Shown here: positions 48,356-61,447 of the stretch, in pieces
Numbering within the stretch: position 1 is the first letter of the stretch
Layout of the letters: each line of letters opens with the position of its first letter
DNA from: Dictyostelium discoideum
Lineage: Eukaryota
NCBI GenBank assembly: GCA_000004695.1
Contig: CM000152.2
Coordinates: 4,352,001 to 4,416,000 of the forward strand
Direction: 5' to 3'
DNA length: 64,000 bases
Translations under genes and position numbers: made by a program
Notes under the pieces: model-generated
Seen by the model: only the letters and a program-made list of their open reading frames with translations
What the model was told of the DNA's origin: nothing
Database searches by the model: none

Positions 48356-48426
48356 TGCGTATGCTGGGAATCGAACCCAGTTCGCATCCGTGGCAGGGAT
48401 GCATCATACCACTAGACCACATACGC
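48356..48426 (-). tRNA. tRNA-Gly (anticodon GCC)
   Basis: The reverse complement is GCGTATGTGGTCTAGTGGTATGATGCATCCCTGCCACGGATGCGAACTGGGTTCGATTCCCAGCATACGCA. The anticodon stem CATCC/GGATG encloses the loop CTGCCAC. It is identical to the second copy at 61344..61414. Confidence 0.9.
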
Positions 48427-51293: not shown

Positions 51294-52526
51294 ATGGAAA
51301 AAACAAAAATTAATTCAAATGAATTAAAAGTCTTGATAAATAATTTTGGAACAGTTCCTTTATTTAAAATTGATGAAAATGAAAACCAAGATGTTACTTT
51401 AAAAAAATTAAATAGTTCAAGGTAAATAATTATTTAATTTTTTTTTTTTTTCATTTATATATTTTTATTATTTAAAACTAATTATTTATTTTATTTTTAA
51501 TTAATAGACCAGTTGGGTATCATCAATTTTGTTTTGATTCAAAATTAAACAAATATAAAAGTATTGATAAAGGTGATTTAATTGAAAATCAAAGTGAAGA
51601 ATTAGCATGTAATCCATACCTTTATTCAAAGAATATTAAATTTGTACATGAACGTGATATGGAAATGTGTTATATTTGTAGGGATAGGGATGCTCCATCA
51701 GTATGTTTATGGAGTTGGGATTTTGGAAAGAAATTAGAAATTTCAAAATTAATATTAAACATGTTATTTATGGCATTTGAAGAGAATAGTGGTATTGATT
51801 GGTATTTATCAACTGAAATTTCCAATGATATGGTTTTAGCATTGCGTAATAAAAACCATGAAAAAGTGATGAAAACAATTCAAGATGAATTTTTCAAGTT
51901 ACCATTAGAACTTGTTTCACCAGTTTATTTTGATAAGAAATTAAATTTAACAGAATTGGTGGGTGGTTCAAAGAGATTCTATCTTTCATGTATTATGTCC
52001 AATAGTGGTCCTTATAAAACTCAATTATTCCGTTCGAAATTCTTAACAAAATTCACTCAAGAAGATGACGACTATCTACATTTACACACACCTCCAAAAT
52101 TCAATTACCCATTTAATATCTACTTTGAAGTTTCATTATCATCAAATAACTCCACCACCACCACTACCTCAACTACTACTAAAAAAGAAAATCAACAAGA
52201 AAATCTTGATATTAATGGTAAACAAAACAATAATAACTATTATTTCGTTGAAATTGATGAAAATATTGATACAGTTCAAGATAATAGCACCTTTAAAACA
52301 AAGAATTGGGATTCTGGTAGAGTTGGTGATTGGTTATTTGATATGGGTTTCTATGACTTGATTGAAAGGTTTTCCTTTCAAAATGTTAATGGTGAAACTT
52401 TATTAACTCGTGGTTTATCAATATTACCAAATAGTTTTCTTCAAAATTCTACAAAAAGAAATAAATATATTGAAGCAATAAATAGATTATTATCATTAAA
52501 TAAAATGGATTCAATTTTATCGCCTC

Positions 52527-52610
<84 letters not shown>

Positions 52611-53281
52611 TACAATTACAACAACAACCAATTGAACAACCAATTGCAAGTGCTGATGATCAACAAATGTTAGTTCCAACTGCAAATGCTTCACCATTGT
52701 ATTCAAATCAATATAGTGAAAAATCAATTTTATTTTTAAATTATTTAGACGAAACAAAAAAAAAACAATTAAATAATTTTAAAAAATTACCAGATGAATC
52801 TTCAAAAAATCAAATAAATCTTGATGATAATAATGAAAGCAAATTAATATTAAATGATTTAAATTCAAGTAATTATAAATTAATAATTAAAAATAATGTT
52901 ATTCATGTTCATAAATCAATACTTTCACAAAATTCAGATTATTTCAATGCATTGTTTACTTCAAGTTTTTTTGAAAATTTAAATAGTACTTGTACTTTTG
53001 AAAGTGATGATGAAAAATTAACAATTGAATCATTGGAATTATTAATGGAATTTATTTACCTTCAAACTCAAGAAGAAGCATTAAATTTTTTAAAAAAACA
53101 AGATTTTAAACAATTAAAAGTTTTACTTCATTTATCCGATAGATTCCTTTTTAAACAAAAAGAATTAATTGAAAAATTTATTGTTTGGTCTATAAAATCT
53201 GTAAATTTAAAAATAATTGATCAAGAATTTAATAATAATAATTTAATTTCGCTCTTTACAAAATATTATTTAAATAATTAA
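51294..53281 (+). CDS. SAM-like plus BTB/POZ domain protein with a 35-residue polyQ tract, two exons
   Basis: join(51294..51421, 51508..53281). Exon 1 reads MEKTKINSNELKVLINNFGTVPLFKIDENENQDVTLKKLNSS, with a GTAAAT donor overlapping the apparent stop. The acceptor is taatag. Exon 2 includes a SAM-like block (WDSGRVGDWLFDMGFYDLIERFSFQNVNGETLLT) and a (CAA)n polyQ. A BTB block follows (NYKLIIKNNVIHVHKSILSQNSDYFNALFTSSFFENLNSTCTFESDDEKLTIESLELLMEFIY). Confidence 0.65.
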
Positions 53282-56201: not shown

Positions 56202-56609
56202 AAAACAATAAAATATTATTTAAAAAATTATTATTTTATTATTTTTATTATTTTATTATTTAATATATATTACTAATCTATTTAATGTAGTTTAAAAAAC
56301 CTTTTTTAAAAAAGGCAAACTATAGTTGTTTAAAAGGAACCACAAAAATTTAAAATCATTGGAGGTATTAAAAAGAGTGCACGATATTTACAAAAATCCA
56401 TGAATAGCCTGGAGATAGATTCGTTGAATTAGTATTGTTGATTTTTTTTTTTTTTTTTTAAAGGAAATAAAAAAAAAAAAAAATCTATAAAAAAAAAAAA
56501 AACCAAAGCTAATTAAAAAAAAAAAAAATTCGATTGATTATTTTTTTTTTGACCATATTACTTATATATACTTATTATTTAAATTTTAATAAAAGCCACA
56601 TGACTCTAT

Positions 56610-56640
<31 letters not shown>

Positions 56641-56783
56641 CGTTTTATAATTTTTTTTTTTTATTTTTTTTATATTTTTGTTATGAGTAAATAAATATTA
56701 ACAAAAGATAAAAGCAAAATAATTCATTGCATTTTTTATATATTTTTTTATTTTCTTATTTATTATTTATTTGAAAAAAAACG

Positions 56784-56821
<38 letters not shown>

Positions 56822-57409
56822 GGTATAATAAGTTTTGATTGGCCAAAATTTAAAAAACAAAACTTAATAACGAGACTATATAATTACGTTACAAATTAAT
56901 TTTTAATTTTTTACTTTTTTTTTTTTTTTTTTTTTTTGAAAAAAAAAAATTTCGAAATTTTTTTTTTTTTTTTCGTTTTTTTTTAGTATAAAAAGACATT
57001 TTAAAACTGATATATTTTCATTCAACAAAACATTTAATTGTAAGTTAAAAAAATAATAAAAAAAAAAAATATATATATATATATATATATTTCCTTGGAA
57101 ATAAATAAAAAATTATTATAATAGTGCTATTGAATGATGATATATCACCGCCCCAGTCATAATTTTTGTGCTGATTCGGATTTACAGAACACGCCAGTTT
57201 TGCTTCTGACACCAATAGTCACTACTATAATTATTATATTCATAATATTTATGTAGTTCAATATATTAATATTATTTTATTTTTATATTATAGATTTCTC
57301 GCTAAATAATTTCTATGAGCTTCCTCCTTTGAATTCTCTGCTTTTTAATAATTTCTTGAGGTATGTTACCTAATTGATTCAATCGCCAAATCTTGATATT
57401 TTTTTAAAT

Positions 57410-57487
57410 GTTTTGAATGATGAAACAAACAGACCTGATCTGAACAGTCAATGTTGACCAAAACTAAGAAGTTCTGACTCAAACATT
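57410..57487 (+). ncRNA. Candidate box C/D small nucleolar RNA
   Basis: The sequence reads ..ttttgaaTGATGAaacaaacagacCTGAtCTGAacagtcaatgttgaccaaaactaagaagttCTGActcaaa... It has a C box (TGATGA) near the 5' end, an internal CTGA (D'), a terminal CTGA (D box) and 4-5 bp of terminal complementarity (ttgaa/ctcaa). Overall length is about 75 nt. It sits in a 400-bp island that is non-AT-rich and non-coding. Confidence 0.35.
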
Positions 57488-58113
57488 TAAAAATATATTA
57501 TTTTTTCAGGCGAAAAATATATACTCTTTTTTTAAAAATAATTCGAATACTAATCGTGTTTTCTTTTTAAAAAAATAGGTTTTTCGTTATTTAAAAAATA
57601 TTGTTTTCTTTGTTTAAAAATTATTGTTTTTTTTTTTTGTTCAAAAAATTATTTTTTTCTTAATTTAAAAATGCTTAATAAAAATTTAAATTTTATTTTC
57701 TTTAAAAAAAATCCCGCGTCAACTTTATTTTTTATTTTATAATGATTTTTATTATTTTTTACTTGTTAATTTAATAAATTGCCGTATTCGAGTTTAAATT
57801 TCCTGATGATATGAATGTTAATTGTCATTGAGGAATTTAATTCATTTATTGTTTTAATCTTTTTTTAAAAATATACACATTTAGTTTATTGTTTTTTAAT
57901 ATTTTTATTATTTTTTTTTTTTAATTTTTTGATTGAAAGATGTGTTCCAACTTTTTTTTTTTTTTCATTTTTTTTTTTATTTTTATGAAAATTTTTTATA
58001 ATTTTTTTTTATTTTTTTTTACCTTCCAACAAATGACAAAACAATAAGAAAAAAAAAAAAAAAAGAAAAACAAAAAAAAAAAAAAAACAAAAACAGATAA
58101 AAATAAAATTAAA

Positions 58114-58453
58114 ATGGAAGAAGAACAAGTTTATCAAAAAGCATATGAATGCTTTCAAAGAAAAGAATTTGAACAATCTTTAAAATTATTAAAAGAGATC
58201 AAAGAAAAGAACCAATATCAATCTACTGTAGAGATTCAAATGAATATATTAGTTGCAGAATTTTATAATAGAAATTGTTTAAATCATTTAAAATTAATTG
58301 AAGATTTAAATCAGTTATTAAAATCATTAGTAACAAATAAACAACATCAACCACAACAACAACCATCACAAGACAATTCATCACCAATATTATCATCAAC
58401 ATCAATAACATCACCACCACCACCAACCATTGGTTTAGATTCACAGCCACAAT

Positions 58454-61343: not shown

Positions 61344-61414
61344 GCGTATGTGGTCTAGTGGTATGATGCATCCCTGCCACGGATGCGAACTGGGTTCGAT
61401 TCCCAGCATACGCA
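61344..61414 (+). tRNA. tRNA-Gly (anticodon GCC), second identical copy
   Basis: This 71-nt sequence is identical to the reverse complement of 48356..48426. Confidence 0.9.
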
Positions 61415-61447
61415 CAAATTTTAAATGCCTGATTTATTAGATCAACT

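Follow-up and report, generated by a model that had tools for sequence, protein, structure and literature searches.

A box C/D snoRNA pair in an AT-rich intergenic region of Dictyostelium discoideum and its putative spliced host gene

The locus and its two snoRNAs

The sequence considered here (hereafter, the window) is a stretch of 64,000 nucleotides (nt) from chromosome 3 of Dictyostelium discoideum (GenBank contig CM000152.2, positions 4,352,001 to 4,416,000). Positions are those of the window unless preceded by chr3. Between an upstream gene for a BTB-domain protein (51659-53281) and the gene CNOT10, whose ATG lies at 58114, an island carries two small nucleolar RNAs (snoRNAs) of the box C/D class, CD9 (DdR9) and CD1 (DdR1), and motifs resembling the signals of a small spliced gene are found around them. 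A first-pass annotation, made from the sequence alone, had described this island as GC-richer and free of open reading frames (ORFs). Both parts of the description hold: the GC content, calculated in 200-nt windows, is 0.215-0.29 across 57000-57499 vs. 0.095-0.145 on either side (56500-57099 and 57500-58099), and no ORF longer than 56 amino acids (aa) is present over 57000-57600 on either strand.

The whole window was scanned against the Rfam covariance models, the gathering thresholds being 65 bits for DdR13 and 70 bits for DdR1. Exactly two snoRNA matches reach the gathering level, i.e., DdR13 and DdR1, and both scores stand above the curated thresholds far beyond chance (Table 1). There are two box C/D snoRNAs in the island, not one. 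The DdR1 match falls within 57410-57487, which the first-pass annotation had proposed as a box C/D snoRNA on account of its C, D' and D boxes and of a short terminal complementarity; the three boxes are present, and ~57403-57413 pairs with 57480-57490 in the fold. The same annotation had seen in 57121-57240 a possible small RNA or promoter. The small RNA exists and is CD9; the promoter is discarded.

CD1 is identical to the consensus of Rfam RF01559 at all 66 positions, over its full length. The upstream snoRNA matches the DdR13 family, likewise over the full length, because CD9 is a paralogue of CD13 (chr5). The boxes of CD9 are C (ATGATGA, 57134-57140), a degenerate D' (CATA, 57158-57161), C' (GTGCTGA, 57168-57174) and D (CTGA, 57206-57209). 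The CTGA at 57171-57174 is no D' box, as it belongs to C'. The boxes of CD1 are C (ATGATGA, 57417-57423), D' (CTGA, 57440-57443), C' (ATGTTGA, 57451-57457) and D (CTGA, 57474-57477).

Published coordinates are available on the + strand of chr3 for CD9 (81 nt; PMC8817022, Table S5) and for CD1 (66 nt; Diesend 2022, PMC8817022, Table S5). Their difference from the window positions is 4,352,000 for CD1 and CD9 alike, which identifies the two RNAs with the published pair. The published probe for CD9 is an exact match to 57194-57210. The published CD1 probe (AACCTCTTAGTTTTGGTCAAC, Table S2 of PMC8817022), compared with 57453-57473, has one mismatch to the genome and to the Rfam consensus (AACTTCTTAG...); this single base, which is the sole difference from the D. 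discoideum CD1 of RF01559, is probably either a misprint or a mismatch introduced on purpose.

Cloned cDNAs document the expression of CD1 and CD9 (Aspegren 2004, cited through PMC8817022), and primer extension, northern blot and RNA-seq that of the snoRNAs (PMC8817022). The first-pass annotation had made its snoRNA call depend on expression, on rRNA (ribosomal RNA) complementarity and on conservation, and had referred it to Rfam and to the published sets. The cDNA cloning, northern blots and primer extension cited in PMC8817022 supply the expression, the published probes mapping at this locus, and both RF01559 and Table S5 of PMC8817022 contain CD1. The call is correct and concerns RNAs that are already known: both are in Rfam and in two papers, and were first cloned in 2004. 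It nevertheless shows that true box C/D snoRNAs can be picked out of raw AT-rich sequence. The best explanation overall, which we hold with high confidence, is that the island corresponds to CD9-CD1, the pair of box C/D snoRNAs already published, which guide rRNA ribose methylation.

Conservation and synteny

The comparison is based on a three-way alignment of D. discoideum, D. dimigraforme and D. citrinum, with the loci anchored on the upstream BTB-domain gene, whose orthologues in the last two species are 81-82% identical. The syntenic loci of D. dimigraforme and D. citrinum contain both snoRNAs, with order and spacing unchanged and scores of 85-96 bits; the conservation on which the call also depended is thus found. 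Invariant columns amount to 88% for CD9 and 91% for CD1 vs. 21-54% in the flanks outside the snoRNAs. Boxes and guides are unchanged. Substitutions are localized in the stretch that separates D' from C' and at the distal end of the CD1 D guide.

The CD9 precursor hairpin has a minimum free energy (MFE) of −24.7 kcal/mol (z = −3.0), better than 199 of 200 shuffles, and includes an 11-bp terminal (external) stem, which is retained in the three species with one compensatory change from UA to CG. The external stem of CD1 is A/U-rich (~10-13 bp); its AATGTT/AACATT core is kept in the three species, without covariation.

In more distant species the picture is different. No snoRNA is found within 10 kb of the CNOT10 orthologue of D. 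purpureum (locus L001) or P. violaceum (locus L002), thus the synteny between the snoRNAs and CNOT10 is broken there. The gene order upstream of CNOT10 in these two species differs from that of D. discoideum. In the close relatives the snoRNA unit stays beside the upstream BTB/TIG genes, from which a rearrangement breakpoint between the snoRNA unit and CNOT10 is deduced for the distant species. The paralogous BTB loci (L005-L007) contain no snoRNAs. A CNOT10 fragment freed of low complexity retrieved no homologues when used as query, and look-ups with a 40-aa ORF over CD9 and with the BTB ORF retrieved no transcript or strain contigs.

Table 1. Features of the CD9-CD1 locus. Invariant columns refer to the three-way alignment; bit scores are followed by the gathering threshold.
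Feature	Position	Strand	Basis and remarks
Upstream element TAATAACGAGAC..N..AATTACGTTACA	56865-56893	+	Inverted TAACG/CGTTA half-sites
TATA block GTATAAAAAGACATT	56986-57000	+	Putative RNA polymerase II (Pol II) core promoter; 13/15 columns invariant
Predicted interval for transcription start and very short exon 1	57001-57039	+	Deduced from the positions of the TATA block and of the consensus 5' splice site at 57040
Putative intron 1 (254 nt), contains CD9	57040-57293	+	GTAAGT 57040-57045, TATTAAT 57264-57270, TAG 57291-57293
CD9 precursor hairpin	57122-57225	+	Mature RNA plus stem arms 57122-57132 and 57213-57224
snoRNA CD9 (DdR9)	57131-57211	+	Rfam RF01563 (DdR13) 57131-57209, 100.4 bits vs. 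65; chr3:4409131-4409211
CD9 D' guide element	57147-57157	+	ACCGCCCCAGT, 11 nt
CD9 D guide	57189-57205	+	5' of D box 57206-57209
Putative exon 2 (67 nt, GC 0.30), non-coding	57294-57360	+	Bounded by conserved TAG and GTANGT
Putative intron 2 (218 nt), contains CD1	57361-57578	+	GTATGT 57361-57366, TACTAAT 57548-57554, TAG 57576-57578
CD1 precursor hairpin	57403-57490	+	Mature RNA plus external stem arms ~57403-57413 and 57480-57490; MFE structure pairs the flanks
snoRNA CD1 (DdR1)	57414-57479	+	Rfam RF01559, 94.8 bits vs. 70; chr3:4409414-4409479, 66 nt
CD1 D' guide	ends 57439	+	Core ACAGACCTGAT
CD1 D guide	ends 57473	+	Core CTAAGAAGTT
Putative terminal exon	57579-57710	+	AATAAA 57677-57682, block ~57661-57710

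Guides and rRNA targets

In box C/D snoRNAs the C and D boxes form a kink-turn, on which Snu13, Nop56, Nop58 and the methyltransferase fibrillarin assemble. A guide of 10-17 nt forms a duplex with rRNA; the 2'-O-methylation is placed on the rRNA nucleotide that faces the fifth guide position 5' of the D or D' box.

The targets of the pair were assigned by RiboMeth-seq and guide prediction (PMC8817022): (i) for CD1, 17S-Um1456 by the D guide, 17S-Gm1506 and 26S-Gm2132 by the D' guide; (ii) for CD9, 26S-Am1370 and Am1463, both by the D guide. The fifth base 5' of the box, as read from the sequence, is C57435 (leading to Gm), A57469 (Um) and T57201 (Am). These three bases agree with the published Gm1506, Um1456 and Am1370, respectively, and thus support the assignments. 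For the rRNA complementarity that had been demanded of the candidate, the published target mapping by RiboMeth-seq (PMC8817022, Table 1, S5, S7) provides support.

The guides have counterparts in other eukaryotes. In sub-threshold Rfam alignments, ACAGACCUG is common to CD1, Plasmodium snoR25 (E = 7e-5) and yeast snR56, a CD1 guide is also common to snoU61, and ACCGCCCCAG is common to CD9, Caenorhabditis elegans ceN63 (E = 4e-4) and human SNORD31 (E = 1e-3). As the scores are below the gathering thresholds of the respective families, CD1 and CD9 are not members of these families. The orthologous guides act at the same rRNA positions, i.e., snR56/SNORD25 and SNORD61 for CD1, snR61/SNORD38 and snR67/SNORD31 for CD9/CD13 (PMC8817022, Table 1). 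They are carried by separate snoRNAs in yeast and human, whereas in Dictyostelium a single RNA unites them. Two pattern scans of metagenomes for the guide combinations of CD1 and CD9 gave no matches.

CD13 and CD9 have in common the D guide for 26S-Am1370/Am1463 and the 11-nt element ACCGCCCCAGT. CD13 is credited with 26S-Gm2952 by means of this element, and CD9 is not (PMC8817022). In SNORD31 the element is followed by CUGA; in CD9 it is followed instead by CATA in D. discoideum and D. dimigraforme and by CTTA in D. citrinum. The element itself is perfect in the three species (57147-57161, L003 15555-15569 for D. dimigraforme and L004 18537-18551, the adjoining D' position being included in these intervals). 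This strict conservation suggests that it may still work in CD9, either as a redundant guide or as a folding chaperone.

Conserved signals around the snoRNAs

Before any comparison, D. discoideum alone displays a TATA-like GTATAAAAAG at 56986, a GTAAGT at 57040, a TATAG ending at 57293 and a GTATGT at 57361. In the three-way alignment the distance from the TATA block to GTAAGT is 52-54 nt, and 38% of the columns between them (57001-57039) are invariant. Some 95-120 nt upstream of the TATA block lies TAATAACGAGAC-N-AATTACGTTACA, the sole G/C-containing block of the upstream intergenic DNA that all three species keep. Its half-sites resemble a Myb-type core, and it may be a promoter-proximal factor site of the snoRNA unit.

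The signals of putative intron 1 are invariant or nearly so (GTAAGT 6/6, branch motif 6/7 with Y as the variable position, TAG 3/3), while the flanks within this intron have 21-48% of invariant columns. The interval between GTAAGT and CD9 shrinks from 91 nt to 81 nt in D. dimigraforme and 42 nt in D. citrinum, with loss of a (TA)11 run. TAYTAAT lies 52-56 nt 3' of CD9 and is followed by the first AG (TAG), 82, 78 and 81 nt 3' of CD9. In the case of putative intron 2, AATACTAA(T) 3' of CD1 is invariant, and the next AG (TAG) is found 99, 90 and 109 nt 3' of CD1. In both introns and in the three species, each TAG is the first AG 3' of its branch motif. A CAG at 57507-57509 was discarded as 3' splice site of intron 2: it is specific to D. 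discoideum and located upstream of the conserved branch motif.

In the three species, putative exon 2 measures 67, 64 and 67 nt, respectively. Indels are present in it, and its 3' boundary reads GAG/GTATGT, GAG/GTAGGT and GAA/GTAAGT (the stroke marks the predicted cut). The spliced model contains no ATG-initiated ORF of more than 5 codons. Exon 2 has a mini-ORF at 57315-57332, ATG NNN TTY CYN YTT TGA (MSFLL, MRFPF and MCFLL), the ATG and TGA of which are kept in the three species. It could be due to chance, or could be a route of the host RNA to nonsense-mediated decay.

Near the 3' end of the unit, the block TTTAAAAATG(C/A)TTAATAAAAATTTAA is nearly invariant in the three species, and the AATAAA that it holds is read as a putative poly(A) signal. 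Within 57557-57672, D. discoideum only has a tandem repeat of 23-24 nt in 4.9 copies (Tandem Repeats Finder, TRF; consensus TTTTCTTTATTTAAAAAATTATTT). The unit of this repeat is in single copy in the other two species, just past the putative last 3' splice site.

A putative spliced host gene

The arrangement of these signals leads to the interpretation that the CD9-CD1 unit is a spliced non-coding host gene of miniature size, each intron of which contains one snoRNA. We consider this reading probable, with appreciable room for doubt. It is also the sole point of the present analysis that is possibly new, the snoRNAs themselves being already published. The transcript would start at the conserved TATA promoter (56986) and undergo splicing. 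Intron 1 (57040-57293) would contain CD9 and intron 2 (57361-57578) would contain CD1, with a non-coding exon of 67 nt between them, and a short terminal exon with the conserved AATAAA would close the transcript. The snoRNAs would be set free by splicing, by debranching and by exonucleases that trim as far as the snoRNP (the snoRNA with its proteins). The external stems would assist this release by bringing the C and D boxes together.

Several observations argue for this reading. Each snoRNA is flanked, on its own strand, by a 5' splice-site motif, a branch motif and a 3' splice-site motif. Exon 2 is without real ORF and has 49% of invariant columns vs. 88-91% for the snoRNAs. The positions of the TATA block (56986) and of the AATAAA block (57677) fit a Pol II promoter and a polyadenylation signal proper to the unit, both being predictions. 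The full architecture was defined as (i) a 5' splice site at most 100 nt before the first snoRNA, (ii) in the spacer, a branch motif and AG followed by a 5' splice site and (iii) a branch motif and AG at most 120 nt after the second snoRNA. When the flanks of each of the three species were shuffled 20,000 times with their composition preserved, it appeared 0, 0 and 1 times. TAYTAAY is present in 12 of the 16 ORF-supported introns of the window, and in the CNOT10 intron a TATTAAC is kept in all three species, the remainder of that intron being unalignable. TAYTAAY thus appears to be the branch motif of the D. discoideum genome.

Other observations weigh against the host gene. A scan for GTANGT, branch motif and AG is unspecific in a single sequence (13 observed vs. 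12.6 in local shuffles), and for this reason the argument rests on the position of the motifs relative to the snoRNAs and on their retention across species. The motif definitions are partly post hoc, as they were fixed after D. discoideum had been viewed. The power of conservation is limited, because the three species are closely related (their CNOT10 coding sequences are nearly invariant). In its 5' part, intron 2 has a GC content of 0.29 and is in this respect exon-like, and the predicted exon 1 has only ~15-25 nt. All snoRNAs except CD38 are classed as intergenic in PMC8817022. Lastly, the catalogue of developmental long non-coding RNAs (lncRNAs) of Rosengarten 2017 has no entry at chr3:4.4089-4.4096 Mb. 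This absence could be due to the size of the spliced product, which would have ~200 nt or less, might be unstable, and would be near or below the size limit and thus filtered out.

The distance between snoRNA and branch motif is 52-56 nt for CD9 and 64-73 nt for CD1. Hirose and Steitz are said to have found, in 2001, that in mammals a branch point ~50 nt away from the snoRNA is near the optimum for splicing-coupled box C/D assembly. By this analogy CD9 would fit well, and CD1 less well.

Alternative modes of biogenesis

Dictyostelium snoRNA clusters are viewed as intergenic bi- or tricistronic units, primary transcripts having been detected by reverse transcription-PCR (Aspegren 2004, as cited in PMC8817022); the genes inside them are "equally spaced" (PMC8817022), at ~200-250 nt. 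As reported through that citation, primary transcripts were found for 3 of the 4 originally predicted bicistrons. CD9-CD1 is 1 of only 4 adjacent pairs among the original 17 snoRNAs (Table S5, PMC8817022) and is therefore taken as one of these four bicistrons; as far as the citation in PMC8817022 goes, it probably also belongs to the three for which a transcript was demonstrated. The pair could thus be made as an unspliced bicistronic precursor, i.e., one Pol II transcript cut in the spacer by an endonuclease and trimmed by 5'-3' and 3'-5' exonucleases, in the manner of the polycistronic clusters of yeast and plants, with splice-like motifs that are idle. The external stems, which could define processing substrates, and the lack of a spliced RNA in the lncRNA catalogue agree with this. 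We regard it as a possible but rather doubtful explanation. The spacer (57212-57413, 202 nt) folds no better than shuffles (z = −0.81) and has no significantly stable hairpin that could serve an RNase III. DrnB, the nucleolar RNase III, was tested by the authors of PMC8817022 because yeast-type polycistrons require such an enzyme; its loss leaves snoRNA abundance unchanged except for OR9 and CD37, the levels of CD9 and CD1 being unaffected (PMC8817022). The pair thus has neither the stable spacer stem-loop nor the DrnB dependence of an RNase III-processed cluster. Moreover, an unspliced bicistron leaves unexplained the retention of GTAAGT, TAYTAAT-TAG, GTANGT and TACTAAT-TAG amid drifting bases, as well as the fixed distance between TATA and GTAAGT upstream of CD9.

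The promoter arrangement bears on two further explanations. If the snoRNAs were two independent genes, each would have a promoter of its own: for CD9 the (TA)11 run at 57070-57092, for CD1 an A/T-rich element before 57403. In D. discoideum, TA-rich runs do occur upstream of CD9, at a distance of 40-60 nt, but the (TA)n run is missing in D. dimigraforme and D. citrinum and is, being unconserved, rejected as CD9 promoter. Directly upstream of CD1 no TATA-like block is conserved, and the primary transcripts across the originally reported bicistrons, as cited in PMC8817022, also speak for a common transcript; independent genes are thus very improbable. Alternatively, the snoRNAs could reside in introns of the 5' untranslated region (UTR) of the protein-coding CNOT10, which is on the same strand and begins 635 nt downstream of CD1. 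However, past the putative last 3' splice site come the conserved AATAAA block and then ~300 nt of unconserved DNA, CNOT10 has a conserved promoter-like block of its own (TGAAAATTTTTTATAAT ... ACCTTCCAACAAATGACAA) 60-130 nt upstream of its ATG, and the CNOT10 loci of D. purpureum and P. violaceum are without snoRNA within 10 kb. From the promoter-like block and the unconserved DNA up to the AATAAA block it follows that the snoRNA unit is separate from CNOT10, and a location in its 5' UTR can be given hardly any credence.

Comparison with known snoRNA systems

The proposed host gene has its closest likeness in the mammalian UHG and GAS5 genes and in the UHG-like hosts of Neurospora crassa (PMC2780460). 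The likeness, which for CD9-CD1 is predicted, lies in (i) a Pol II promoter and one snoRNA per intron, (ii) short, poorly conserved exons without real ORF and (iii) a fixed distance of the snoRNA from the branch point and 3' splice site. The CD9-CD1 unit differs from UHG and GAS5 in that its predicted spliced RNA is very small (~140-210 nt) and its splicing putative. No report of a snoRNA host gene of the UHG/GAS5 type in Dictyostelium was found in the full-text literature searched.

Several snoRNAs per transcript, as proposed for CD9-CD1, are also the case of the S. cerevisiae snR72-78 and of plant clusters. In contrast to clusters cut by RNase III, CD9-CD1 has no stable spacer hairpin and no DrnB dependence, and conserved splice signals flank each of its snoRNAs.

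Other features of the window

A block strongly conserved in the three species (TGAAAATTTTTTATAAT...TTTTACCTTCCAACAAATGACAA, ~57987-58045), 60-130 nt before the CNOT10 start codon, is probably the core promoter of CNOT10 together with the start of its 5' UTR. A C-box-like CCTGATGA...TTGAGGAA with complementary flanks at ~57803-57838 is attributed to chance, since it is unconserved in the two other species and has no Rfam match. A scan for promoters and terminators of bacterial type gave counts at the shuffle level and is irrelevant for a eukaryote.

Elsewhere in the window, a Dictyostelium Class I RNA gene is located at 682-741 (−) (Rfam RF01414, 50.8 bits vs. 41.5) and a tRNA-Phe(GAA) at 1450-1523 (−). 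Two identical tRNA-Gly(GCC), at 48356-48426 (−) and 61344-61415 (+), i.e., 13 kb apart, bracket the region. In D. dimigraforme, a tRNA with a score equal to that of tRNA-Gly(GCC) is found downstream of CNOT10 (L003 20704-20774).

Significance

If the host gene is real, the biogenesis of Dictyostelium snoRNAs would be recast from polycistronic processing to release from introns. The spacing of ~200-250 nt within the clusters would then reflect an alternating layout of introns and exons, and the missing phenotype of the RNase III (DrnB) would be accounted for. UHG-like hosts and splicing-coupled assembly of box C/D snoRNPs would exist in Amoebozoa, not just in animals and fungi. Non-coding snoRNA hosts would in that case be as old as the ancestor that Amoebozoa share with Opisthokonta, or would have arisen by convergent evolution. 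The conserved splice-signal architecture is in itself a modest addition to what is known of this snoRNA pair and, if confirmed, would matter modestly.

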